Source: an uncultured Bacteroidales bacterium
GTDB taxonomy: Bacteria > Bacteroidota > Bacteroidia > Bacteroidales > UBA932
Reading direction: 5' to 3'
NCBI GenBank assembly: GCA_949286415.1
Contig: CASEBV010000016.1
Coordinates: 12,967 to 76,966 of the forward strand
Length of the DNA stretch: 64,000 nucleotides
Below, piece by piece: positions 4,315-64,000 of this stretch. Within the stretch, counting starts at the first letter, position 1; the number at the start of each line of letters is the position of its first letter. The translations under genes were made by a program, and so were the position numbers. Below the pieces are notes generated by a model. It was not told the DNA's origin, searched no databases, and worked only from the letters and a program-made list of their open reading frames with translations.

Positions 4315-4875
4315 ATGAGGATACTGAAATATTGTCTTGTACTTGCCTGTATGGCAGTTATGTCCGCCACCGGGGCAGAGGCCAGAAGATTTGCAGTGTC
4401 AACCAATCTTGCAGGCTATGCCAATCTCGGGACTCTGAATGCCGAGCTTGCATATTCTTTCGCGAGAAGGTGGACGGTAAATGCCGGAGTGAAATACAAT
4501 CCGTGGACATTCAGGGCTTCCGGGCGCCAGTTCCAGAACAGGCAGCAGTCGTATTCGGCGGGAGCAAGGTTCTGGCCCTGGCATGTCTATTCCGGGTGGT
4601 GGATTGCGGGCAAACTTCAGTATCAGGAATACAATACAGGAGGCATAATATCCCGCAGGACAGAAGAGGGAGACAGAGCGGGGGCAGGATTGACTGCGGG
4701 ATATACTTATATGCTGCATCCGAATCTGAACATTGAATTCGGAATAGGCCTGTGGGCCGGGGTGAAATGGTATGTTGAATATGCCTGTCCCGCGTGCGGC
4801 CTGACCCTGTCGTCAGGGAGGAAGGGATTCATTCTTCCGAATGATCTGCTGATATCCATTTCGTATGTTTTCTGA
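4315..4875 (+). CDS. DUF3575-family small outer-membrane beta-barrel protein
   Basis: 186 aa with a signal peptide. STNLAGYANLGTLNAELAY...YNPWTF...GAGLTAGYTYML...YACPACG...ISISYVF matches my recollection of the DUF3575 signature found at the head of Bacteroidia fimbria-like loci. Confidence 0.75.
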   Translation: MRILKYCLVLACMAVMSATGAEARRFAVSTNLAGYANLGTLNAELAYSFARRWTVNAGVKYNPWTFRASGRQFQNRQQSYSAGARFWPWHVYSGWWIAGKLQYQEYNTGGIISRRTEEGDRAGAGLTAGYTYMLHPNLNIEFGIGLWAGVKWYVEYACPACGLTLSSGRKGFILPNDLLISISYVF

Positions 4876-4889
4876 ACAGTTCTGGCATT

Positions 4890-6845
4890 ATGGACAAGAA
4901 ACGATATGTCAGCGGAAATTTCGCCTCGGGTATTTCCGCCTGTATGGTGGCAGCGGTTGCGTCGCTTCTTCTGCCGGCGTCGTGCGGCGTGGGAAGCAAG
5001 GTCTCCGATATTCTGGACAGGGATGTCCATGTCGGGATGTCTATTCCATGGGAAGAGGACAGGCTGGCTGCAGATGACGGATGGGAAGACGGGTGCGGCG
5101 TAGTGCGGGATACAACTGACAAAGACCGGGATGGCGGAGGCGATCCGCTGATAATGAATGCTGTGCGTGAAACTTCTACCGGAGACATGGTCGCGACTGA
5201 TGTGATTTCAGCTTCGCGGGTTGTCGCAAGATTCCGGAATGTGGCGGAACGCGGCGGGGCGGTGTCTCTTGAATTTGACATTACCGTTCCTCCGGACATG
5301 ATAGACTCAAGGTGGAAACTGAAATTCCTCCCGAAGATGGATGCCATGGGCCGAAAATCATCGCTGGAGCCGTTGTATATCACCGGCGAGCGGTATCGTG
5401 CGGCTCAGCTGCGCGGGTATGAGAGGTATCAGGCATTTCTTGCATCAATCATCACTGACAGTTCAGTCTTCGTGAGGACCGACCAGCTTGAGAAATTTCT
5501 GATGCGGTATTATCCGGGGATATATGCCATGAAGACAGATTCGTCATTTGTGTCTGATCCGGAGGCTGAAAACCTGTTCGGCGTAAGTCAGCGCGAGGCT
5601 CTTGAGCATTACACCAGACATGCACTCGTGCAAAGGAATGAAAATAGAAAAAAGTCAAGGGAAACTATGTTCCGGAAATATGTGAAGGATCCCATTGTTT
5701 CCGAAGGGCTGAGGCTGGATACGGTGCTGGCAGGAGCTGACGGGGCACTGTGCTACAGATATGTGCAGAATGTGCGCAGCTTTCCGGGACTGAGGAAAAT
5801 TACTGTATCTCTTGACGGGGAAGTGTATGCGGACGGCAAGAGGCTGCTTGCCCTGCATCATCCCGACTCTCTTGTCTTCTATGTCAGCAGCCTGTCTTCC
5901 CTTGTGGATGATACGCCGAAATATCAGACGGTAGTCCGGTACCGCAGAATCTATGACAACACCAGTGCTTTCATCGACTTCAGCCAGGGCTCGGCCGAAA
6001 TTGATACTCTCCTTGAAGGCAATGTCTCGGAATTGAGCCGTATCAGAAAGTGTATTGAAGACATATCCTCAAAGGCTGAATATGTACTGGATTCAATGAC
6101 TGTGACCGCATCATGTTCTCCCGAAGGAGATTACGGATTCAATTCCCGGCTTGCCGGAGCCAGGGCCTTGTCTGTCCTTGATTTTGTCAGGTCAGAATTT
6201 CCGGACAGTCTTCATCCGAGGCTGAGGACGGCATCAGTCCCTGAAAATTGGGACAGGATGAAGCTGCTGGTCCGGAACGACAGCACCCTGTCTCCTGTCA
6301 TCAGGGACAAGATTATGTCAGTCTCTCCCGCTTGCGACAAAGACTCGGCGGAAACGGCGCTTTCGTCATTGCCCGGGTATATTTATCTGAGGGAGAAAAT
6401 CTATCCCAGGCTGAGGAGTGTGAAGTTTGAGTTCTGGCTTCACCGTCCTGACATGGCGAAAGATACTGTGCATACCGCTGAACTGGATACGGCATATATG
6501 TCCGGCGTTGAGGCAATACGGAATCTGGACTACAGGAAGGCTGTCTCGCTTCTTCGGCAATATTCGGATTACAACAGCGCCCTGGCTTGCCTTTCAGCCG
6601 GATATGAAGAAACTGCACTTGAGATACTTGCGGGCATACGTCAGAAATCCGCCAAGGCCAATTATCTGGCGGCACTCGTGATGGCAAGGCTTGACATGAA
6701 GGCCGAAGCCATGGAGTATTACAGCAGGAGCGTAATTCAGGATCCCTCGATGAGATTCAGGGCGAATCTTGATCCGGAACTTTCCCCTCTGTTGAGAAAA
6801 TCGAATGATGAAGAAACATATATTACCGATAAATTATCAGTTACA
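4890..6845 (+). CDS. DUF3868-like / OmpA_C-like lipoprotein with a TPR-like C-terminus; no stop codon of its own (reads in frame into the next gene)
   Basis: Lipobox LPASC near the N-terminus. An OmpA_C-like segment is present (SCSPEGDYGFNSRLAGARALSVLDFV), and the tail is TPR-like (YRKAVSLLRQY...AMEYYSRSVIQDP). The ORF track shows one 975-aa ORF spanning 4890-7817. Confidence 0.55.
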
Positions 6846-7817
6846 ATGAAAAAGACATTTATTACAGGTGCAGCCGCAGTCTTCTTTTTGGCGGCATGTA
6901 CACAAGAGCCCCGGCCGATGTGTCAGGAGTCTCTGGAAAAAGTTGAATTGAGTGTGACGGTTCCTGTCTCCTCCATGACAAAAGTGACGGATATAGGGAA
7001 TGAGAATGCCGTCAACAGGGTGCAGGTCTTTGTATTCAGGGAAGACGGGAGCATTGACGCCTGGAGCATTGCCGAGTCTGACAGTCTTGTCATTGACTGT
7101 ACTGCCGGGGACAGGGAAGTCGTGGCTGTCGTGAATGCGCCGAGGATAGTGAATATATTCAATATTGATGCGCTTAAGGAAGAAGTTTCGGACCTGCAGG
7201 ACAATTCTGTCGGCTCGCTTGTGATGTCAGGGAGCAAAAAAGTGACATTGTCGGCATCGGCAAGTATTACCGTGCCGGTCAGACGACTCGTGGCAAGGGT
7301 TTCCATTGAGCGGATTGTGACTGACTTTGCTCTGGAGCAGTATCGCAATTCTGAATTCATTATCAAAGGAATCTATCTGACCAATGTCGCCGGGGATGTC
7401 CATTATATCGGCGATGAGGCTCCTTCCTATTGGCACAATTCACAAGGGAAAGACCTGCTTGAACAGGAACTCATTGAAACAGGCGAAATGTCCGAACCGG
7501 TGGTCTCCGGCATCCCGTATGATACTCCGCATTATTTCTACTGCTGCCCGAATCCATATCTTGCGGATTCTTACGCGGAGGAATGGAGCCCACGCCATAC
7601 CAGACTTGTCGTCGAGGCCAGTCTCTCCGGAAGAATATGCTATTATACCATGACAATGCCAGTGATAGAATCCAACCATCTGTATACAGTCACGGAACTC
7701 CGGATTACAAGGCCCGGGTCTTCGGATCCGGAACAGGAAATGCTGCCTGGAGACGCATCATTTACAATTGAGGTGGAAGACTGGGAAGAAGGCTATACCG
7801 GTCAGTTTGAAATTTAA
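6846..7817 (+). CDS. fimbrillin (FimA/Mfa-like, type V pilin fold) lipoprotein
   Basis: An internal ATG at 6846 opens a complete lipoprotein signal peptide (MKKTFITGAAAVFFLAACTQ). It carries pilin-like motifs: NRVQVFVF, VRRLVARVSIE, HLYTVTEL, VEDWEEG. Length is 323 aa. Confidence 0.6.
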   Translation: MKKTFITGAAAVFFLAACTQEPRPMCQESLEKVELSVTVPVSSMTKVTDIGNENAVNRVQVFVFREDGSIDAWSIAESDSLVIDCTAGDREVVAVVNAPRIVNIFNIDALKEEVSDLQDNSVGSLVMSGSKKVTLSASASITVPVRRLVARVSIERIVTDFALEQYRNSEFIIKGIYLTNVAGDVHYIGDEAPSYWHNSQGKDLLEQELIETGEMSEPVVSGIPYDTPHYFYCCPNPYLADSYAEEWSPRHTRLVVEASLSGRICYYTMTMPVIESNHLYTVTELRITRPGSSDPEQEMLPGDASFTIEVEDWEEGYTGQFEI

Positions 7818-7833
7818 ATAAAATATGGCTGAA

Positions 7834-8625
7834 ATGAAAAGAAAGATATCGCCCGCAGTGTTATTGTTGTGTATGGTCTTCATGATGCCCGCAGGGTGTT
7901 CGGTGAAGGAGAACAGAGGGGATTGCCCGTGCTGCATAATGTTTGACTTCAGTGGGGTGGATACGGATGTCATTGATTCAGTGTATCTGAGCGTGACATC
8001 GGCGGACGGCTTTCTTTTCTCTGATAATGTGCTGCAAGAATCTTTTGCCGACGATTATTGTGTCAGAGTGCCACGCGGGGAAGTTAATGTCAATGTCAAC
8101 AACGGTACGGAAGGGCTTTATGTGGATGGGCGCGGGCTGGCGATTCCATACGGAAGCCAGTGTCCTCCTGTCTATATGTACAGCATAAGACTGGATGCAG
8201 ATCGGGAGTCTTGTGAATGCATGCCTTTCCCGGCCAAGAATTATTGCGGCATTATTCTGCATCTGGTGTGTGAAGAAGATCCGGATCTGCCTTTTTCTCT
8301 GCGGATAACAGGCAATGTGTGCGGGTATGATGTCATAGGCCGGCCGCTCGACGGGGATTTTTCATATATCCCGGAACTGGCTCCGGACGGTGTCTGCTCG
8401 GCCCGCATCCCGCGCCAGAAAGACAATTCCCTGTCTTTGGAAATAGTTGAGGACGGCATGGTGCTCAGAAGGTTTGCTCTGGGTAACATAATGGCTGAAA
8501 GCGGATATGACTGGTCAGCCGAAAGCCTCGGTGACATGGAGCTGACGGTGAATTATTCCAAGACTGATGTGACATTCATTGTGGATGACTGGGAAAAGGA
8601 ATTCGTGTTTGACATCACTATCTGA
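7834..8625 (+). CDS. lipoprotein, possibly a FimB/Mfa2-like pilus anchor/terminator subunit
   Basis: Signal peptide plus lipobox (MKRKISPAVLLLCMVFMMPAGCS) and a Cys-rich start to the mature protein (GDCPCCIMFDF). It sits directly after the pilin-like gene. The family call rests mainly on context. Confidence 0.4.
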   Translation: MKRKISPAVLLLCMVFMMPAGCSVKENRGDCPCCIMFDFSGVDTDVIDSVYLSVTSADGFLFSDNVLQESFADDYCVRVPRGEVNVNVNNGTEGLYVDGRGLAIPYGSQCPPVYMYSIRLDADRESCECMPFPAKNYCGIILHLVCEEDPDLPFSLRITGNVCGYDVIGRPLDGDFSYIPELAPDGVCSARIPRQKDNSLSLEIVEDGMVLRRFALGNIMAESGYDWSAESLGDMELTVNYSKTDVTFIVDDWEKEFVFDITI

Positions 8626-55912: not shown

Positions 55913-55942
55913 GGTGATGTAATTACTTTAATTGTATGCTTA

Positions 55943-55950
55943 CAAATTTA
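55943..55950 (-). promoter_or_regulatory. candidate -7 box (TAAATTTG on the minus strand) for maa
   Basis: The plus strand reads CAAATTTA. It lies 30 nt upstream of the ATG at 55912. Confidence 0.4.
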
Positions 55951-55952
55951 TT

Positions 55953-55960
55953 TATTTTTG
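55953..55960 (+). promoter_or_regulatory. candidate -7 box TATTTTTG for the beta-lactamase gene
   Basis: Matches TAnnTTTG, 16 nt upstream of the ATG at 55977. Confidence 0.4.
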
Positions 55961-55976
55961 TAAAAAAATTCAGGGA

Positions 55977-56777
55977 ATGATGAGGGTATTTTATTGTATG
56001 TCATTGATTTTTACGGTATTTGTGACTACTGCGTGCGGCCGGGCGGGAGATTTGGAACAGCGGTTGATGGAAATTGTCTCCGGAAAGGATGCCGAAGTGG
56101 GAATTGCTGTGATTTTCAACGGTAAAGACACTCTTGCCCTTAATAACTGCAATCATTACCCGATGATGAGCGTGTTCAAGTTCCACCAGGCACTGGCTGT
56201 CGCCGACCACCTCGCAAAATCAGGAAAACATCTCAGTGACAGGATACACATAGAGCCGGAAGACCTGCAAAAAGACACTTACAGTCCCCTCAGGGACAAA
56301 TTTCCTGACGGCAACTTCGACATCAGCATCGCTGAATTGCTGCAATATACCCTTCAGTTATCCGACAACAACGCCTGTGATATCCTTTTCAAATATATTG
56401 CAGGCGTGAATGAAACAGATGATTTCATCCGTTCGCTCGGACTCGAAAAGTTTTCAATTTCAGCAAATGAGGATGACATGCACAAAGACCTCAGCCGCTG
56501 CTACGACAACTGGAGTACTCCACTCGACGCAGCGCGGCTGCTTGAAATTTTCATCACGCAGGATGTTCTGCAAGAGGAATATGGCGATTTCATCAGGAAA
56601 ACCATGACTGAATGCACCACGGGGCAGGACAGGCTTGTCAAACCACTGCTCGGAACAGATGCAGCCATAGGACACAAGACAGGGACGGGAGACCGGAATG
56701 CCGAAGGCAAACTCATAGGCACCAATGACATCGGATTCATATCTCAGGCGGTATATGAATATGCCATTGCGCAATAA
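55977..56777 (+). CDS. Ambler class A beta-lactamase (Bacteroides CblA/CepA/CfxA-like), apparently truncated at the C-terminus
   Basis: Motifs present: SVFK (56169-56180), SDN (56361-56369) and KTG (56676-56684). The ORF stops 30 codons after KTG, whereas the homologs I recall continue for about 60 residues. Confidence 0.7.
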   Translation: MMRVFYCMSLIFTVFVTTACGRAGDLEQRLMEIVSGKDAEVGIAVIFNGKDTLALNNCNHYPMMSVFKFHQALAVADHLAKSGKHLSDRIHIEPEDLQKDTYSPLRDKFPDGNFDISIAELLQYTLQLSDNNACDILFKYIAGVNETDDFIRSLGLEKFSISANEDDMHKDLSRCYDNWSTPLDAARLLEIFITQDVLQEEYGDFIRKTMTECTTGQDRLVKPLLGTDAAIGHKTGTGDRNAEGKLIGTNDIGFISQAVYEYAIAQ

Positions 56778-56825: not shown

Positions 56826-57440
56826 CTAAGCCAGTACATATCCCTCTCCGGACTTTGTGAGAGTGCCCTGGCTGACAAGCTGGGATACGGCCCTTGAAAG
56901 AGACGGGCGGGCGACGCCGAGGATGAAGGCTGCCTCCTGGAGATTGTCCAGCGGTCCGTTGTGTTCTATGTAGCTGACAATTCTTGAAGAAAGCGTCTGG
57001 AGTGCGAATTCATTGAGGCGGCGGCTCAGGAACATGCTGTGGTCGGAGATGACCGTGAGATAGTTGTGCAGCACTGTCTTGTCTGTCTCTATGATCCTGC
57101 GGATGCTTTCCTTGCCCACAACCCAGATGCTGCAGTCCGTAGATGCGAGAATCGTGACGGGGAATATCCCTTCGCTGCTGAATATGAATGATGAGGCGAG
57201 CACATCCGGGGCAGAGAGGGTGTCGAGCGTGAATTCCTTGCCTTCTTCACTGACCATCTTCGCATATACGCTTCCGTTGCAGAGCAGGAACAGGGAACGG
57301 CAGGCGTAACCCTGCATGGCAATGATGTCTCCTTTGCCGTATGTGGAATATCTTCCGGGAGATTCTTCAAATATCTTCCTTATGGCTTCCCTGTCTCCCC
57401 CTCGGAACAGTGGCATGTCGCAGATGTCGTAATGCACCAT
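56826..57440 (-). CDS. Crp/Fnr-family transcriptional regulator
   Basis: cNMP-binding-like beta-roll followed by a C-terminal HTH (LQEAAFILGVARPSLSRAVSQL). The start is ATG 57440 (204 aa) or ATG 57512 (228 aa). Confidence 0.8.
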   Translation of the reverse strand: MVHYDICDMPLFRGGDREAIRKIFEESPGRYSTYGKGDIIAMQGYACRSLFLLCNGSVYAKMVSEEGKEFTLDTLSAPDVLASSFIFSSEGIFPVTILASTDCSIWVVGKESIRRIIETDKTVLHNYLTVISDHSMFLSRRLNEFALQTLSSRIVSYIEHNGPLDNLQEAAFILGVARPSLSRAVSQLVSQGTLTKSGEGYVLA

Positions 57441-57552
57441 GGCCTTTCGCTTTGTTCTGTCAATCCATGTGGCCGCGGAATGTGTTTCCTTGTGTTTTGC
57501 GGATTTTCGCATGCCGGTAACAAATGTTACGGATTATCTTTTCCCCGGGATA

Positions 57553-57560
57553 TACCTTTG
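57553..57560 (+). promoter_or_regulatory. candidate -7 box TACCTTTG for the pilin-fold lipoprotein array
   Basis: Matches TAnnTTTG, 68 nt upstream of the ATG at 57629. Confidence 0.45.
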
Positions 57561-57598
57561 CATCCGAAAAATCCCCCGGACGGCCGTCCGGACGGGTA

Positions 57599-57628: not shown

Positions 57629-59569
57629 ATGAAATTCAAGAATATCATGTTTATGGCGGCGGTATCGGCCGCAGTGTCCGTTTCCTGCATCAGGGAAAAT
57701 GGGGTGGTGACACTTCCCTGGCCGTTGGACGAAGGGATTTCCTTTACATTGTCACCGGAAGACTATGCAGGTGCCGGAAATTCCGGCCCTGTTCAATTGA
57801 CATCCGCAGGACCGGACGGATACGACAGGGTGGAGTTCGCGGTTATTGACATGGAAGGGAAGGCCGTGGGCGGATTGAAGGGATTTTATGACCCGCAGTC
57901 ATCGTCTGTCAATATAGAAGGACTCAGGGAAGGAAGTTACAGCCTTCTCGTTCTCGGGGTGAAGGGCGATTATGAGAGGGACGGGGTGGAATTCTTCCGG
58001 ATATCCGATGTCTCCGACACATGGATATCCTTTCCGGAGGATATGGAAAGTGCTCTTTCCGCAGAATATTTCCACTCGTCAACCCCGTTTTCGGTGAAGG
58101 CGGTGCATACTGGTGACGGGAAAGAGTTCGTGGCGGATGTCACCGGGGCGATAAGTCAGAGAAGGGTAGTGGGGAGGCTGGATTTTTCGCATGAATTTGC
58201 AAATCCTCATACTGAATCCGCCGTATTGTCCAATGTGGTGATTCTTGATTCCCCTCGGTTTTTCACCGGAATGTCTGCGGGTGGGGCATTTACCGGCACG
58301 AGCAGCGCCGGACGAATTGTCCTTGATGCAGCGGAGAAGAAGGAGTTTCTTTTCATGCCCACTGTGGAAGGAGAACGCATATCCGGTGAAAATGAAATCA
58401 TTACGAGAGATTACCGAGGGGTGCGGGTCAGACGGGTTTATTCGTTCGCCGGCGCGGGGATCGCCCCGAATCATGTCAATGGAGTGAGAATTGAAGCCGT
58501 GCATCCTGATGATGAGACGGGGACGATGTTCATAACAGAAAAGCATTACATCAAAGGCGGCCACGGTACCATTCTCAGCGACGATGAGCATCATTCCGTA
58601 TATACTGATGCGTCGCAGAGGCGTTTCAATACTTCGGAGCCGCTGCAGATTTCAGTAGAGGAGGGCAGGCTGCATGTGAGGTTTTATTCTCCGAAGCCGT
58701 TGTCCGATGTGCTTGTGAAGGCTGTCTTGCCGGGTACGGACGGAGAATATGTGGATCTGGCATGGTTTGACAGGATTCCGGCGTTCGCTGACTTTTATGA
58801 GACCCTACCCATGGCCATGCGGACAGCCTTGTACAGATCCGAGTCGGGCAGGATTGTGGAGATACCGGCAACTGATGCGCATGACATTTCCATTACCGGG
58901 TTCAAGGTGGAGTCGGATGACCCTTACTGGTCGAAGCTCCAGGATATAAGGCACGGATGGAACATAACCTTTTCCCTCTATGGGGGCGATCCTGACCGTG
59001 AAGACGGCGGTCCGGCGGGAAACTGGATGGGAATACGCCCTGTGCATTGCCGGGAGGCGGTGGCCCTTTTCCTGAATTTCACCTATATGATAGACATGCC
59101 TGAGCATGAAGAGATATTGCAAGAGAACCAGGACCGTCTGTACGGCAACGGCGGGCCTGATGACAAGGTCACTCCGGAGACGGTGCTTGCACAGATGAGA
59201 CAGGAAAGGAGCATAAATGTGGGGCTTGTCTATACCGGGAACGGTGTCCTGGGGCTCGGAGGAGGAAATGTGTTCGGGGCATATCAGGGCGGATGGTTCA
59301 ACCATTATACCTCGGAATACGCCTGCGAGGTGATGTTCCACGAGCTCGGACATGTAATGGGATACAGCCACAGCAGCGCTTTCACATACGGCCCGTGGGC
59401 ACAGGAACTTATGAACAGGTTTTATGTTTCCCACATTTCTTCAATGCCGGTGGATTCTCCGGAGTATCTGGACAGCCGCAACAGTCCGTACCTGTATGCC
59501 TCACAGCCCAAAAGCATCTCTGAGAGCCATGTCAGGATGGGACATGCAGGAATATGCGGGGCGGAATGA
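57629..59569 (+). CDS. lipoprotein: pilin-fold-like N-terminal region fused to a C-terminal metzincin-type zinc metallopeptidase domain
   Basis: Lipobox VSVSC. The motif QRRVVGRLDFS is shared with the downstream paralogs. HELGHVMGYSH (59339-59371) is a perfect HExxHxxGxxH metzincin motif. Confidence 0.65.
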   Translation: MKFKNIMFMAAVSAAVSVSCIRENGVVTLPWPLDEGISFTLSPEDYAGAGNSGPVQLTSAGPDGYDRVEFAVIDMEGKAVGGLKGFYDPQSSSVNIEGLREGSYSLLVLGVKGDYERDGVEFFRISDVSDTWISFPEDMESALSAEYFHSSTPFSVKAVHTGDGKEFVADVTGAISQRRVVGRLDFSHEFANPHTESAVLSNVVILDSPRFFTGMSAGGAFTGTSSAGRIVLDAAEKKEFLFMPTVEGERISGENEIITRDYRGVRVRRVYSFAGAGIAPNHVNGVRIEAVHPDDETGTMFITEKHYIKGGHGTILSDDEHHSVYTDASQRRFNTSEPLQISVEEGRLHVRFYSPKPLSDVLVKAVLPGTDGEYVDLAWFDRIPAFADFYETLPMAMRTALYRSESGRIVEIPATDAHDISITGFKVESDDPYWSKLQDIRHGWNITFSLYGGDPDREDGGPAGNWMGIRPVHCREAVALFLNFTYMIDMPEHEEILQENQDRLYGNGGPDDKVTPETVLAQMRQERSINVGLVYTGNGVLGLGGGNVFGAYQGGWFNHYTSEYACEVMFHELGHVMGYSHSSAFTYGPWAQELMNRFYVSHISSMPVDSPEYLDSRNSPYLYASQPKSISESHVRMGHAGICGAE

Positions 59570-59590
59570 TAAACGGTTTATTGTGAGTAT

Positions 59591-61906
59591 ATGGAAAAGA
59601 AAATTTTGAAGAATATGCTTGTGGGGCTTGTGCTGCCTGTCTTTGCGGCCATGACAGGATGTTCTGACAGGCAGCTTGCCGCTGATACAGAGGGAACATC
59701 TCCCGTGAAGTTCAGGTTCAGGACTTCTGCAATGACGGGGGATGCGTCGGAGGACAGCAGGATAAATGATGTGACAGCCTGCAGGTTCGAAGACGGGATG
59801 CTCATGGAGATTCTCCGGCTTCAGCCGCCTGATGCTTCCGGAATCTGCTCTTTTGAGACAGAGAGGATGTCCGGAATACTGCATGTGATTGCAAATGCCT
59901 CTTTCCTTGAGGCCGCCGGAGACCTTGAGCCGGGGAAAACTACTCTTGCAGACTTCCTCCGGATGGAGGCATCAGCAGATGAAATGACGGCTGACGGGCT
60001 GACTATGACAGGAAAGACCGTCCTCGGCAAGACTGCAGGGACTGTCACGGATGTACAGATGACAAGGAGCGTGGCAAGACTTGACATCTCTTCGGAAGAG
60101 AAGGATGTCTTTGTCCACAGGGTAATCGTCCACGGGCTGCACGACGGGGGGCTGGTCAATCCGCAGGATTCGGATGCATCCGGAGATGATGTACAGGTCT
60201 CCGGTGCAGGAAAGACGGCTGGAATGACCGTGCCGGCCGGCGGTACTGAGCATGTGACGGATTTTTCTGACAGTCCGCTTCACAATTCGCGCAGGACGCT
60301 TGTCTATGTTCCGGAACAGGAAGGCGTGGCCGTATCGGTTGAGGTGACTGCTGCATTCGGAGGAGCGCTTCACCGGCTGACGGCTGAGCTTCCGGCGAAA
60401 ATCCGGAGGAATACGGTCTATACTCTTTCCGTACATGGCAACGGCGCGGGCATTTCGGTCTCTGTCATTGACGGGGATTGGCAATCAGGGGATTCCTCCG
60501 ATTCGTCGCCGTCACTGAAAGGGCTTGTGGATGTGGACAATTCTGTCTTCGGTGACGGAGTGAGGGTGAATGCGACAAGGGATACTGTCTTTGTCGGCCA
60601 TCTTGAGAATGACTTTGTATTGTCCCTGCTTGCGGAGCCTTCTGCGGAGGTGACAGTGGACGGCAAGGTCCGCGGAGTGGAAATCAGCTTCATGCCTTCC
60701 GGAGGAAAGACGCTTGTCCCTGCCGCCGCCGTATCGGTGAGATCGGCTTTACGGATGCCGGGGAGAGGTGCAGAGAGGATTCATCTTGATGTGCGTGAGG
60801 GAAATGTCCATTCCGGAAGGGTGGTGCTGGTGTTCGGTGCCAATCCGGTTAAGATAGACGGTATCCTGAGATTCGATGATGAAGGCATTTGTGATTTCGG
60901 AAGATATGTGGAGGGGGAGTTGGCAGTGATTAGCCTGCCTGAGGGCAGGGAACTAAGCCTTGAATTTGCCGGAGGCGAGAATGCCTGGATGAAGGCGGAT
61001 GAGGTGTCCGGCGGCAAAGATGTACGGAATGCAGGTTCAGGGAAATCATACAGGCTCCTCGGAGGATGGAAGCCAAATGACCCGGAGGCAGACGGGAGAG
61101 TGCAGGAAGGTATTCTGGTAATTTCGGATCCGGACGGTTCGGACAGGGAGACATACGCAGTAAGAAGACTTAACTGGGGGCTTCCGGTGGTGAAGATGGG
61201 GGAGACCTGGTGGTGCAGATACAATCTCCGCGGCAATGTAAGGGATTTTGAGGACCAGATCACCAATGGCATGGATCCGGCCCCGGACGGCGGACTTTAT
61301 GAAATGCTCGCAACCCTTTCCGAAGATGAACTTCTGGAGCTGATGGGAGACCAGTACCAGGCCGGTAATCATGACGGACTGCCGCTGAGCCATGACGGGA
61401 CCGCCTTCTTTCATGAGGGCATGAAGTCCCAGGCGATGAACTTCGGACTTCTGGATCCTGCCGAAATGGCTCCTGAGGGATACAGGATACCTGATTATGA
61501 CGACTATGCGTTCTTTTCAGCAAGCGACAATTTCAATATCGGAGGCATAGGCGAGAGGCCTTTCAACAATATGTCCGGACGGAGGATCAATGTGAGGATA
61601 GCGGAAAGGGAGGTCAATTTCCTCGGACATGAGTACGGCATTCTGTCTTTCTACGACTTCGAGCATGAGGGAAACCATTGGACACTGTTCGGGCTCGGCC
61701 ACCAGTGGAACACGGATCCAGGGAAAATAGCGGTAAAGACCCTGCTGCTTGCCACATACGGGAATTCCGGCAGGACATGGGTCATGGAAGGCTATGCGTC
61801 ATCGGACCGTCCGGGACAGAACTGGATCAAGTTCGCCGAGAACAATTCGGTGAAGACGAGAATGATAAGGTGTGTAAAGACGCCGGTGGAATATATATAC
61901 GAATGA
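59591..61906 (+). CDS. lipoprotein: fimbrillin-like N-terminal module plus a C-terminal FISUMP/DUF1566-like (lectin-type) domain
   Basis: Lipobox AMTGC. Pilin-like motifs TRSVARLDIS and RRNTVYTLSV...DGDW. C-terminal features GETWWCRYNL, APEGYRIPDYDDY and RMIRCVK resemble the Fibrobacter succinogenes major paralogous domain. Confidence 0.55.
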   Translation: MEKKILKNMLVGLVLPVFAAMTGCSDRQLAADTEGTSPVKFRFRTSAMTGDASEDSRINDVTACRFEDGMLMEILRLQPPDASGICSFETERMSGILHVIANASFLEAAGDLEPGKTTLADFLRMEASADEMTADGLTMTGKTVLGKTAGTVTDVQMTRSVARLDISSEEKDVFVHRVIVHGLHDGGLVNPQDSDASGDDVQVSGAGKTAGMTVPAGGTEHVTDFSDSPLHNSRRTLVYVPEQEGVAVSVEVTAAFGGALHRLTAELPAKIRRNTVYTLSVHGNGAGISVSVIDGDWQSGDSSDSSPSLKGLVDVDNSVFGDGVRVNATRDTVFVGHLENDFVLSLLAEPSAEVTVDGKVRGVEISFMPSGGKTLVPAAAVSVRSALRMPGRGAERIHLDVREGNVHSGRVVLVFGANPVKIDGILRFDDEGICDFGRYVEGELAVISLPEGRELSLEFAGGENAWMKADEVSGGKDVRNAGSGKSYRLLGGWKPNDPEADGRVQEGILVISDPDGSDRETYAVRRLNWGLPVVKMGETWWCRYNLRGNVRDFEDQITNGMDPAPDGGLYEMLATLSEDELLELMGDQYQAGNHDGLPLSHDGTAFFHEGMKSQAMNFGLLDPAEMAPEGYRIPDYDDYAFFSASDNFNIGGIGERPFNNMSGRRINVRIAEREVNFLGHEYGILSFYDFEHEGNHWTLFGLGHQWNTDPGKIAVKTLLLATYGNSGRTWVMEGYASSDRPGQNWIKFAENNSVKTRMIRCVKTPVEYIYE

Positions 61907-61954
61907 TTTTTATGAATGAGTTACTTATGAAGACAATTAAAAAAAGGAGAAGAT

Positions 61955-62863
61955 ATGAAGACAAATGTGACAAAAACTGCGGCTATTGCCGCATCGGCAG
62001 GACTTGCGGCAATGGCACTTTCAGTTTCATGTACAAAAGACAGGGTGGCTCTTCCGGATACTGATGGCGGAGCCGCAGGGAGCGTGACGGTGAGGGCGAG
62101 TATCGCCGGATACTATGGCGAGGATCATTCCGCCGGAGCCGGGAATGCGGTCAGGGACCTGCAGGCCTGCATATTCGAGGACGGCAGGATGACCGGCATC
62201 TTTGACAACCTTTCCATGTCCGGGGGCAGCTGCGACCTTGCCATTGACGGGCATTCCGGCACATTGTATATGCTTGCCAATACTGACGGGCTCATTGATC
62301 TTGCCGCGCTCCAGTCCGGGGAAATCTCCGAAGACGAATGGCTCAGGACAACCGTTGCGATGAAAGACGGGGCACCGGCCGATTTCTTCAGCGGAAGTGT
62401 TTCTCTCGACGGGATGGACAAGTCACAGACACGGATTCCGCTTTCGCTCAGGAGAGGAATGGCCAGGTTTGACCTCAAGTTCAATACGGCCGGCAATGCT
62501 GAAGTCCACAGGGTGACTCTCCGCAATGCAGCCGAATCTGTCTTCCTTTTCCCGGTTTCAGGCCAGTATTCCCCGGAAGATGTGTCCAGAAAGGATTATT
62601 CCGCAGAATTCAGGGAGCAGCCGCTCACATCTGATACGGAAGGTGTGCTCCATGTATATGAGCAGAGCACCGGAAACCGTGTAGTGATCAGCGTGGATGC
62701 GGTGATAGACGGGAAGACCGAGGTGCTGACTAAGGAGCTGGAGGAACCCCTCAAACGCAATACAATCTATACTCTGACCTTGCGTAAGGATACCATCGAT
62801 GTGAGCCTTGAAGTGTCTTTTGATGAGTGGGAGCCGGGCAGTGACACGGAACTCATGCCTTGA
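61955..62863 (+). CDS. fimbrillin-like (type V pilin fold) lipoprotein, module only
   Basis: Lipobox LSVSC. Motifs LRRGMARFDLKF, VHRVTLRNA and KRNTIYTLTLRKD (62753-62791) ...FDEWEPG. Length is 302 aa. Confidence 0.6.
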   Translation: MKTNVTKTAAIAASAGLAAMALSVSCTKDRVALPDTDGGAAGSVTVRASIAGYYGEDHSAGAGNAVRDLQACIFEDGRMTGIFDNLSMSGGSCDLAIDGHSGTLYMLANTDGLIDLAALQSGEISEDEWLRTTVAMKDGAPADFFSGSVSLDGMDKSQTRIPLSLRRGMARFDLKFNTAGNAEVHRVTLRNAAESVFLFPVSGQYSPEDVSRKDYSAEFREQPLTSDTEGVLHVYEQSTGNRVVISVDAVIDGKTEVLTKELEEPLKRNTIYTLTLRKDTIDVSLEVSFDEWEPGSDTELMP

Positions 62864-62882
62864 ATGAAAGATGAAATGTATC

Positions 62883-64000
62883 ATGAAGAATTATCTTGAT
62901 CATATTTTGGTGTCAGCGGCATTTCTGCTGTCATCGGTTTCCTGTGACGGCATCCGGAACGGACCGGATGCCGTTCCTGCCGGAGGAGGAACTTTCATGA
63001 CGGAATTTTCCGGATATGCCGGAGAACTTCCGGCCCTCCCTTCCGAAGAACCTGTTTCAGAAATTGCCGCTTTTCATTTTGTCGGAGGCCGTCTTGCCGG
63101 CACATTCCACCCGGAGCCCGGACAGGCATTTGACCTTGCCCTTGAGAAGTTGTCCGGTACCGTGTATGTTGTGGCCGGCACTCCCGGGGCACCGGGGTAT
63201 GAGAAGCCCGGTAGCGGAGTTTCAGAATCAGAATGGCTTCTGTCAGTCGTGTCTGCTGGAGATGCCGGGACCGGGATATTCTATACCGGCAAGGCAGATC
63301 TGGACGGTGCCGTGTCCTCTGTCATACCTGTCAGGCTTGAGAGGGGAGTGGCCAGATTTGACATGGCTGTTGATGTGAAGGGGAGTGCGGAGGTGAAGGG
63401 GATTGTCTTCAGGAATGTAAGGCAGGATGCGTATCTTTTCGCCCCGTCCCTTACCGGAGGAAAGCTGAACCCGGATGATGCATCCGAGGGAAGCATAAGG
63501 GTGGACTTTGATGAGCCGCTGACCTCTTCCCGGGAAGGTATGGCGTACATCCTGCCGCAGGACAATGCTTCGCTGTCAGTGTCGGTGACGGCTGTCGTTG
63601 ACGGCACGGAACATGTGCTGGAGTCGCCGCTGCCTGAGAAGATTTCCAGGAACACCGTATATTCCCTCACCTTGAGGAAGGACAGTGTCGGAGGGAGTCT
63701 TTCCCTTTCCGTGGCCGAGTGGGGTGACGGAGGCGGGACCGGCATGTTTCCCGACAGGGACAGGCCGATTGCAGTGGATCCTGTTTCCGGGGCGTTGCCT
63801 GAGGGAGCCGTACTTTCGGATGACGGCAGGACATTGTCCCTGCCCTACGGCATGTCTGAATTCATCCTCTCGATAGACAGCGATGACGAGCTGGAAGTGC
63901 TTCCTTTTGAAGGGCATCTCCTCAGCATTGCTCCTGCCGGTGACGGCGGTACGGATGTTTCCGGTGGAGCCTCGCTGCAGACTGTCCGTCCGCGAGTCGG
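62883..64000 (+). CDS. fimbrillin-like lipoprotein with a further C-terminal extension (3' end outside the window)
   Basis: Not in the ORF track because there is no stop codon inside the window. My own translation from the ATG at 62883 is open to nt 64000. It gives MKNYLDHILVSAAFLLSSVSC..., then LERGVARFDMAV, VKGIVFRNV and SRNTVYSLTLRKD (63645-63683) ...AEWGDGG. Confidence 0.6.
   Translation, partial: MKNYLDHILVSAAFLLSSVSCDGIRNGPDAVPAGGGTFMTEFSGYAGELPALPSEEPVSEIAAFHFVGGRLAGTFHPEPGQAFDLALEKLSGTVYVVAGTPGAPGYEKPGSGVSESEWLLSVVSAGDAGTGIFYTGKADLDGAVSSVIPVRLERGVARFDMAVDVKGSAEVKGIVFRNVRQDAYLFAPSLTGGKLNPDDASEGSIRVDFDEPLTSSREGMAYILPQDNASLSVSVTAVVDGTEHVLESPLPEKISRNTVYSLTLRKDSVGGSLSLSVAEWGDGGGTGMFPDRDRPIAVDPVSGALPEGAVLSDDGRTLSLPYGMSEFILSIDSDDELEVLPFEGHLLSIAPAGDGGTDVSGGASLQTVRPRV

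Follow-up and report, generated by a model that had tools for sequence, protein, structure and literature searches.

A candidate surface-display operon of Bacteroidales in which type V pilin modules may carry metzincin and lectin-like heads

What is the role of a pilin module in a set of neighbouring lipoproteins that carry different domains behind it? This question is raised by positions 57,629 to 64,000 of a 64,000-nt stretch (the window, meaning the whole stretch of DNA that was analysed) from an uncultured Bacteroidales bacterium (GenBank assembly GCA_949286415.1, contig CASEBV010000016.1, positions 12,967 to 76,966 of the forward strand). In gut Bacteroidales, few families of surface proteins are as expanded as the type V pilins; to our knowledge, little has been established about what they bind, which protease processes them outside Porphyromonas, or which signals control them. 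An earlier reading of the window, made from its letters and open reading frames (ORFs) and called the sequence-only reading here, described four tandem pilin-fold lipoprotein genes and proposed a modular surface-display or pilus-tip system. We refer to these genes as g1 to g4.

57629 to 59569, + strand: g1, ORF for a 646-aa lipoprotein
59591 to 61906, + strand: g2, ORF for a 771-aa lipoprotein
61955 to 62863, + strand: g3, ORF for a 302-aa pilin-only lipoprotein
62883 to 64000, + strand: g4, first 372 of 783 aa, ORF cut by the window end

Our overall explanation, to which we assign a probability of about 0.6, is that g1 to g4 form an operon conserved in Bacteroidales whose products are surface lipoproteins, with a two-domain pilin module as the membrane-proximal scaffold for heads. 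The g1 protein would display a metzincin zinc endopeptidase. Both g2 and g4 would display a lectin-type, divergent FISUMP-like binding domain on two immunoglobulin (Ig)-like spacers, and g3 would be an optional, headless Mfa2-like pilin.

The gene layout described earlier is borne out, with four consecutive + strand lipoprotein genes separated by 21 nt (g1/g2), 48 nt (g2/g3), and 19 nt (g3/g4). They are taken to form an operon because these gaps are only 19–48 nt long and a terminator scan found no terminator-like site above background between the four genes. Both the terminator scan and a sigma-70 promoter scan returned background counts, and the sigma-70 model is unsuited to Bacteroidetes. 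Each signal peptide ends in a lipobox, and the sequences quoted before are correct: VSVSC (g1), AMTGC (g2), LSVSC (g3), and SSVSC (g4). Among 273 orthologues of the four families a lipobox was detected in 246, with acidic residues next in most. The lipobox Cys, followed by acidic residues, is kept in each family and is invariant or nearly so in the g1 and g2 families. Because of the lipobox and the acidic residues after it, the proteins are predicted to be exported by Sec, lipidated at the lipobox Cys, and flipped to the outer face, where they would be exposed.

To what extent is this arrangement conserved? A g1-profile scan of one genome per GTDB species gave 155 relatives, and the 80 loci that were retrieved form the conservation sample. 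Six further assemblies of the same locus (L001–L006), found via g3 and lying on longer contigs, supplied the full g4. The window itself is a 99% match to a Candidatus Cryptobacteroides-type metagenome-assembled genome (MAG), contig CALUPG010000001.1 (locus L007). At all 80 loci g1 is followed by g2; g4 is present at all 77 loci that extend far enough, and the order g1-g2-(g3)-g4 is kept in every one of these 77. The carriers belong to Cryptobacteroides, Alistipes, other Rikenellaceae, Barnesiella, Mediterranea (including the cultured Mediterranea massiliensis), Bacteroides, Parabacteroides, Phocaeicola, and Odoribacter. Complete genomes such as OZ007034.1 and OZ006987.1 also carry the locus. 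In RefSeq, GenBank, and UniRef, the orthologues of g1 and g2 that were sampled, and a RefSeq entry of g3, appear as “hypothetical protein” or “Uncharacterized protein” (among them WP_072544804.1, WP_072544803.1, and WP_022019866.1), and one UniRef entry of a g3 orthologue is named after a fimbrial-subunit N-terminal domain. The look-up covered sampled orthologues of g1 to g3, and no name was recorded for g4 or for the window's own proteins.

The shared module is the first element to be established. The N-terminal modules of g2, g3, and g4 are homologous, as had been claimed, with BLASTP matches far better than chance (g2/g3, 4.7e-17; g2/g4, 5.8e-20; g3/g4, 6e-50 with 37% identity). The first motif of the module had also been recognised in g1. 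For this gene no significant BLASTP match to g2–g4 was obtained, but hhalign aligned the g1 profile (45 homologues) with the g2 profile (50 homologues) over 269 columns at a probability of 86% and an E value of 5e-6. The alignment places g1 1–311 on g2 1–301 and superposes RRVVGRLDF on RSVARLDI, so that the kinship of g1 stands by profile comparison and fails by BLASTP. On these comparisons the array is one of three clear paralogues (g2–g4) and one remote relative (g1). The two sequence motifs quoted for the module were also upheld, since R..(A/G)R.D and RNT.Y...W are invariant or nearly invariant columns of the families.

Structure prediction and profile searches identify the fold of this module. 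AlphaFold2 models of g1 (predicted local distance difference test, pLDDT, 85.5; predicted template modelling score, pTM, 0.79) and g2 (pLDDT 84.4) were compared with the PDB using Foldseek. Eleven of the 12 best chain matches of the g1 model, from eight PDB entries, are FimA-superfamily structures (3gf8, 5nfi, 3liu, 3pay, 4qdg, 4jg5, 4h40, and 4k4k, probability 1.00), among them P. gingivalis Mfa2 (5nfi, 2e-6). The g2 model matches FimA 4q98 (2e-7), Mfa3 5nf4 (target TM-score 0.55), BDI_3522 3r4r (0.58), 3pay, and 3ufi; its other top matches are long Ig-repeat proteins, which reflect the spacer domains. TM-scores of both models against pilins are moderate (0.37–0.58 on the target). Two consecutive transthyretin-like beta-sandwich domains are matched in g1 and g2 by the models, in g3 by Pfam, and in g4 by its 37% identity to g3. 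Members of the g2 family match the P_gingi_FimA, Mfa2, Mfa_like_1, and fim_Mfa1_fam profiles, and 11 of 50 match NCBIfam FimD_tip_adhes (best 1.2e-11). Pfam, hhalign, and AlphaFold2 with Foldseek thus agree with the earlier assignment to the FimA/Mfa fold, and by sequence and model all four genes carry a type V pilin module.

A trivial explanation would be that four unrelated lipoprotein genes happen to be neighbours and have nothing in common beyond signal peptides and low-complexity motifs. The missing BLASTP match of g1 to g2–g4 is what could be said for it. It is ruled out, with a negligible residual probability, by the pairwise E values of g2–g4 (5e-17 to 6e-50), the profile–profile value of g1 (5e-6), the Foldseek matches as independent structural evidence, and a gene order that is kept at every retrieved locus reaching g4.

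The next question is what the modules carry. In g1, the module is followed by a peptidase.

Start of g1, + strand: signal peptide and lipobox (Cys20)
~57731 to 58564, + strand: pilin module of g1
~58607 to 59512, + strand: beta-sandwich and metzincin catalytic module of g1

The metzincin zinc site that had been proposed for g1 is present as HELGHVMGYSH at 59339–59371, an extended HExxHxxGxxH motif. Residues H571, E572, H575, G578, and H581 are invariant among 45 homologues, and the zinc site is also kept in a Capnocytophaga branch. Residues 327–587 of g1 align over 261 residues to PDB 9tpb_A (chain 61–321, E 3e-9), a structure deposited as “Metallopeptidase | metzincin”. A further invariant residue, M595, is a candidate for the Met-turn beneath the zinc site and lies 14 residues past the third His by sequence position; in the Capnocytophaga branch a Met lies 5 residues past the third His, at a position that is occupied by Phe in g1. 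No curated Pfam peptidase family was reached, as g1 scored 14–16 bits against Peptidase_M10 and Reprolysin, under their cut-offs of 22–24. A profile search of 1.84 billion representatives gave 391 clusters with the metzincin module, and architectures were counted on the top 159 of these. A stand-alone lipoprotein of 340–480 aa accounts for 74 of the 159 examined sequences, and the g1-type pilin module is found in 47 of the 50 clusters with proteins of 580–670 aa. The metzincin module defines a family that numbers a few hundred clusters and is represented by a solved structure but by no Pfam model. The Flavobacterium psychrophilum elastase FP0506, which came up in the literature on such enzymes, was set aside as an unrelated gluzincin.

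The solved relative gives a useful comparison. The 9tpb and 9tpc entries represent a 365-aa hypothetical lipoprotein of Capnocytophaga canimorsus with the same beta-sandwich and catalytic module as g1, and both proteins are lipoproteins. They have GLGGG..FG and HE.GHV.GY.H..xTY in common, and a joint alignment adds R.F and FD.IPA. In 9tpb, a short linker replaces the pilin module, and unlike g1 its gene sits in an extracytoplasmic function (ECF)-sigma operon with unrelated neighbours. In C. canimorsus CP029450.1 (L087:5315–10078) this apparent operon has, in this order, genes for the ECF sigma factor, a probable anti-sigma factor (233 aa), a protein of 388 aa, the metzincin, and a lipoprotein of 324 aa, and none of the neighbours matches the g1–g4 profiles, so that neither a pilin nor a FISUMP partner was found beside the stand-alone protease. 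The pairing of protease and lectin is therefore specific to the operon type described here. No publication on 9tpb or its metzincin family, and none on a pilin–metallopeptidase fusion, was found in the searchable literature, which lacks most subscription journals.

In g2 and g4, the module is followed by a different kind of head. The boundaries of the g2 domains below come from its AlphaFold2 model.

~59696 to 60493, + strand: pilin module of g2 (residues ~36–301)
~60518 to 61180, + strand: two Ig-like beta-sandwich domains of g2 (residues ~310–530)
~61181 to 61903, + strand: FISUMP-like terminal domain of g2 (alpha/beta, residues 531–771)
~62991 to 63752, + strand: pilin module of g4; its Ig-like and FISUMP-like domains lie past the window end

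The sequence-only reading gave g2 an extension of about 330 aa and g4 another, unknown one. The g2 extension is in fact ~470 aa long and comprises the two Ig-like domains and a terminal domain of ~240 aa. The complete g4 protein (783 aa) turned out to be a full-length paralogue of g2, ~29% identical to it over residues 58–783, and the C-terminal domains of the two are 25–30% identical with 27 invariant columns. Instead of three kinds of head there are thus two, a metzincin and a lectin-type domain that occurs twice, together with the headless g3. When C-terminal domains of 24 orthologues were isolated, 11 matched PF09603 (Fib_succ_major) at E values up to 0.1 (best 7e-5) and 4 matched TIGR02145 (best 0.015); among full-length members of the g2 family, 4 of 50 match Pfam Fib_succ_major. 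Neither the g2 sequence nor a profile of the g2/g4 heads gave a meaningful match in the PDB, and no solved relative is detectable by sequence. The terminal domain may accordingly be called FISUMP-like, as a divergent relative at best.

Does g3 carry a head of its own? That it has nothing beyond the shared module was stated before and is confirmed. The same reading saw no Mfa2-type anchor in the visible part; here it must be corrected, as g3 itself passes the threshold of Pfam Mfa2 (PF08842) with 32.1 bits against a gathering cut-off of 21.2 (E 1.2e-7, profile positions 110–272 of 277). It thereby resembles the Mfa2/FimB anchors (PF08842; 5nfi) and aligns to the end of the profile, and the g1 model also matches 5nfi. 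The C-terminal tail of g3 is conserved as SFDEWEEG.DTEL.P, and its part past the last strand comprises just 9 polar residues. Mfa2 is encoded behind a stalk gene and ends the polymer. In contrast, g3 is flanked by two adhesin genes, lacks a stalk partner in the operon, and is optional: of the 77 loci that reach g4, 35 have it and 42 do not. A stalk-type pilin gene was not found in the operon at any of the 80 loci.

The pilin module of g4 is also variable. Nine lineages have a g4 orthologue without it, in which almost nothing separates the lipobox Cys from (D/E)WG.GG, the junction at which the module normally ends. At several loci the g4 module is nearer to g3 than to the g4 of the window, which indicates that modules have been exchanged.

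Are these proteins subunits of a pilus, or are they displayed one by one? In the published type V model, anchor and stalk pilins donate C-terminal strands, whereas tip pilins have no donor strand and may bear extra domains; assembly requires that a protease cuts the loop after the N-terminal anchor strand (PMC13655056). The Bacteroides tip adhesins BfrT and BthT combine a pilin N-terminal domain with a linker domain and a C-type-lectin head, and BfrT is cut at R43 (bioRxiv 10.1101/2024.11.15.621889). Like g1, g2, and g4, the Bacteroides proteins BfrT/BthT and BovFim1C and the P. gingivalis proteins FimC-E and Mfa3-5 are lipoprotein precursors with a pilin module followed by extra domains, and the BfrT/BthT plan of a linker and a head of C-type-lectin fold is also the plan of g2 and g4. 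By architecture, g1, g2, and g4 resemble tip pilins, and g3 resembles an anchor. However, known tip adhesins end operons that also encode an anchor and a stalk, whereas here there is no stalk and the anchor-like gene is optional. Further differences from known tip-adhesin operons are that one head is a protease, that the operon has its own HcpR-type regulator, and that no reverse-transcriptase Pfam family was found among the genes called on 15–20-kb stretches of the locus.

Processing may be another point of difference. Known tip adhesins have a protease-cleavable Arg, and no conserved Arg or Lys was found in the corresponding loop of the g1–g4 families. No column of the loop between strand 1 and strand 2 reaches 80% Arg/Lys in any of the four families, with the proviso that the loop alignments are unreliable. 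Columns with at least 80% Arg/Lys lie within predicted strands instead (R42 and R65 of g2, R47 of g3, and R67 of g1), and the g1 of the window has no Arg or Lys between strand 1 and R67.

Individual lipid anchoring, in which the pilin module would serve as a stalk or spacer, is favoured by the lack of a stalk gene, the optional presence of g3, the nine lineages that do without the g4 module, the occurrence of the metzincin elsewhere as a plain lipoprotein, and the fact that no conserved loop Arg/Lys was found. Within our overall reading we consider this arrangement somewhat likelier than one in which g3 receives tip-like subunits by strand exchange; assembly into a stub or tip appears doubtful. 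With respect to the earlier proposal, modular surface display can be retained, while a polymerisable scaffold is unproven and meets some evidence against it.

The set could nevertheless be a genuine type V pilus accessory set, in which g1, g2, and g4 are tip pilins that lose their N-terminal anchor strand to a protease. Donor-strand exchange would then attach them to g3, giving a stalk-less stub, or to stalk pilins encoded elsewhere, for example at the 4315–8625 locus of this window. This would be in line with the pilin fold of all four proteins, with the domains past the pilin C-terminal domain that are a hallmark of tip pilins (PMC13655056), with the 11 of 50 g2 orthologues that match the FimD tip-adhesin model, and with the membership of g3 in the Mfa2 family and its strongly conserved C-terminal tail. 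The disordered loop behind strand 1 in the g1 and g2 models and the presence of a stalk-type locus in the same genome fit as well. We regard the accessory set as rather unlikely, given that 80 loci hold no stalk gene, that g3 is missing from more than half, that nine lineages dispense with the g4 module, that no conserved Arg/Lys was found in the strand 1–strand 2 loop of any family, and that the g3 tail offers only 9 polar residues after its last strand.

The same loops bear on the function of the protease. We know of no Rgp gingipain in gut Bacteroidales, and g1 might act as its counterpart, that is, as a dedicated maturation protease that cuts the anchor-strand loop of the co-encoded pilin-fold proteins and has no degradative role. 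Type V assembly needs a surface protease that acts on the strand 1–strand 2 loop (PMC13655056); g1 is always the first gene, is always co-encoded with g2 and g4, and is itself predicted to be anchored at the surface on the same scaffold. However, no conserved cleavage motif was found in the partner loops, stand-alone homologues of the protease belong to operons without pilin-like partners, and g1 is retained in lineages with a pilin-less g4. The idea is purely inferential and, on balance, very improbable. A related and improbable scheme is a stalk-less type V mini-pilus, induced by host-derived nitric oxide (NO) through an HcpR-type sensor, whose protease and lectin tip subunits are released from the lipid by self-processing through g1 and dock by strand exchange on g3 or on each other. 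If true, it would tie inflammation sensing to mucosal adhesion and proteolysis, and g1 would be the so far unidentified gingipain equivalent of gut Bacteroidales.

In our overall reading, the heads would act jointly: the lectin-like domains would capture a host, dietary, or microbial glycoprotein or glycan-bearing surface, and the metzincin would cleave it.

How might the operon be switched on? The divergently encoded Crp/Fnr-type regulator noted earlier is confirmed by a Pfam cNMP_binding domain (4.5e-12) and a Crp-type helix-turn-helix. The control region contains the following features.

56826 to 57512, − strand: HcpR-like CRP/FNR regulator, 228-aa ORF, likely true start Met25 at nt 57440
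57517 to 57530, unstranded: predicted regulator box, the exact palindrome GTAACAAATGTTAC (GTAAC-N4-GTTAC)
57553 to 57560, + strand: -7 promoter element TAnnTTTG of the g1 operon, here TACCTTTG

The closest solved relative of the regulator is full-length P. gingivalis HcpR (9day, 7.3e-21), followed by 1o5l and 5v30/6np6. The residue aligned to the haem ligand Met68 of HcpR is Met in 68 of 69 regulator orthologues. The recognition helix follows GV(A/T)RPSLSR, with R-P-S-L-S-R invariant in 69 of 69, and reads G-V-A-R-P-S-L-S-R in the window. The gene lies divergently beside g1 in at least 64 of 75 assessable loci. An exact GTAAC-N4-GTTAC stands upstream of g1 at 67 of 78 loci, with 3 other matches in the 1.44 Mb of those loci and a single exact match within the 64-kb window. 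TAnnTTTG is the Bacteroides -7 promoter consensus, and its distance from the palindrome is exactly 22 nt (29.5 nt from the palindrome centre) in all 66 loci that have both. Box and regulator gene also co-occur: both are present in 62 loci and neither in 7, and the few discordant cases are partly ORF-calling artefacts.

These features connect the regulator to a known branch of the CRP/FNR family. The motif GTAACnnnnGTTAC has been published as the consensus of the HcpR2 branch and was tied to a Pro that replaces Glu181 of CRP, and the published Bacteroides HcpR2 regulons contain hcp only (PMC1274295). With HcpR as its closest relative, Pro at the Glu181 position, and a GTAAC-N4-GTTAC operator, the regulator is by sequence of the HcpR2 type. 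It has the Met68 equivalent, the R-P-x-x-x-R helix, and the operator in common with HcpR, a haem-based NO sensor that activates hcp, but the target of HcpR is hcp, whereas the target of this regulator is predicted to be a surface-protein operon. If transcription starts a few bases past the -7 box, the palindrome centre would lie near -41.5, the position of a class II activator. We therefore picture a single promoter in which GTAAC-N4-GTTAC replaces the -35 region in class II CRP/FNR activator geometry and is read by the HcpR-like regulator. We hypothesise that the operon responds to NO or nitrite, which are the most likely inducers because the haem-ligand Met68 of P. gingivalis HcpR has its counterpart in this regulator.

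The spacer between the predicted -7 box and the first codon of g1 also contains a perfect GC-rich palindrome of 16 nt, CCGGACGGCCGTCCGG (57576–57591). Read on the minus strand, it resembles a terminator, with a hairpin and a T run behind it. Of the loci inspected, only L007 and L008, the two closest relatives, have it, and it therefore does not belong to the conserved control region.

Several observations count against parts of this explanation. With regard to the heads, FISUMP-like lectin features had been ascribed to g2 from the outset. The ascription holds distantly, for 11 of 24 orthologue domains, but the g2 of the window and the full g4 reach no Pfam or NCBIfam threshold of the FISUMP models. 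In other words, part of the orthologue heads match FISUMP profiles (PF09603/TIGR02145) and the window's own heads give no match, and the assignment draws on subthreshold or borderline matches in orthologues. Cooperation between protease and lectin is suggested by conserved co-encoding only. With regard to anchoring, ~45% of 28 inspected g2 orthologues have an Arg just ahead of strand 2. In the AlphaFold2 models the first strand is followed by a disordered loop with a pLDDT below 50 (g1 50–62 and g2 46–60), which gives g1 and g2 the appearance of cleavable prepilins. With regard to control, L065, L072, L074–L077, and L080 (Mediterranea, Bacteroides, and Parabacteroides) keep g1-g2-(g3)-g4 and lack both regulator and box. 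The cultured M. massiliensis strain Marseille-P2645 carries g1–g4 and no regulator gene. The operon must be controlled differently in these loci, and because of them the NO link is not universal. Moreover, two regulators that share a DNA motif and a haem-ligand Met need not respond to one and the same effector.

Which parts of this system are new? The pilin fold, the tip architecture of pilin plus lectin, metzincins, and HcpR2 boxes are each already known singly. What appears to be new is the pilin–metzincin fusion, the fixed unit of three to four genes without a stalk, its breadth across genera despite the lack of annotation, and the HcpR-type control of a surface-protein operon. A search for publications on the fusion, the stalk-less unit, its breadth, or HcpR-type control of surface operons found none in the searchable literature. 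At this locus the pilin module bears a predicted enzyme (a metzincin) as well as lectin-type heads, a combination that we did not find described there. The variation among lineages, in which the pilin module may be present or absent ahead of a head and the Mfa2-like gene present or absent in the array, offers a natural experiment. If the control is confirmed, the HcpR regulon would extend past hcp, and the remodelling of commensal surfaces would be linked to nitrosative or inflammatory signals.

A separate, canonical type V pilus locus lies at 4315–8625 of the window. It begins with a DUF3575 gene (4315–4875, E 7e-39). A 975-codon ORF at 4890–7817 follows, in which a protein of ~650 aa without a Pfam match runs in frame, without a stop, into a FimA-like lipoprotein that has its own signal peptide from 6846 and matches P_gingi_FimA (1.2e-8) and FimD_tip_adhes (4e-14). 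This ORF may represent a fusion, an internal start, or a sequencing issue, and a 266-aa ORF at 7825–8625 comes next. The pilin-like gene that the sequence-only reading had placed at 6846–7817 is thus FimA-like as described and belongs to this locus, together with the DUF3575 gene.

Differences between the window and its nearest MAG (L007), 199 over 6.4 kb, are clustered. The 300-nt bins 60929–61229, 62129–62429, and 63329–63629 hold 38, 24, and 31 mismatches, compared to 0–15 elsewhere, which suggests a recombination mosaic inside g2, g3, and g4. A tip adhesin diversified by a diversity-generating retroelement was rejected as a candidate: no reverse-transcriptase Pfam family was found in genes called on 15–20-kb stretches of six assemblies, where template repeats were not searched. 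The divergence from the nearest MAG is patchy.

Past the window end, 90 nt 3′ of g4, lies a gene for a 205-aa protein (g5, L001:13370–13987), after which genes on the opposite strand begin. It has no signal peptide, carries an HCSAGISRSG (CX5R) motif, and gives weak dual-specificity-phosphatase matches. As a fifth member of the operon it was rejected, since among the 80 loci it was found only in the nearest relative, L007, and it is probably not part of the system. The stretch downstream of the operon (L001:14116–19335 and its equivalents in L002–L006) varies from one assembly of the species to the next. Among its contents are a gene of the FtsK/SpoIIIE type, a small one that matches a tubulin family, and many short ORFs without a Pfam match; it may be a mobile or variable island that abuts the locus. 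On the other side, just past the regulator, a class A beta-lactamase gene (Pfam Beta-lactamase2) lies at 55932–56777. In L028 and L037, which belong to two other genera, homologues with 43–46% identity lie downstream of g4, at distances from a few hundred bases up to ~1.5 kb.

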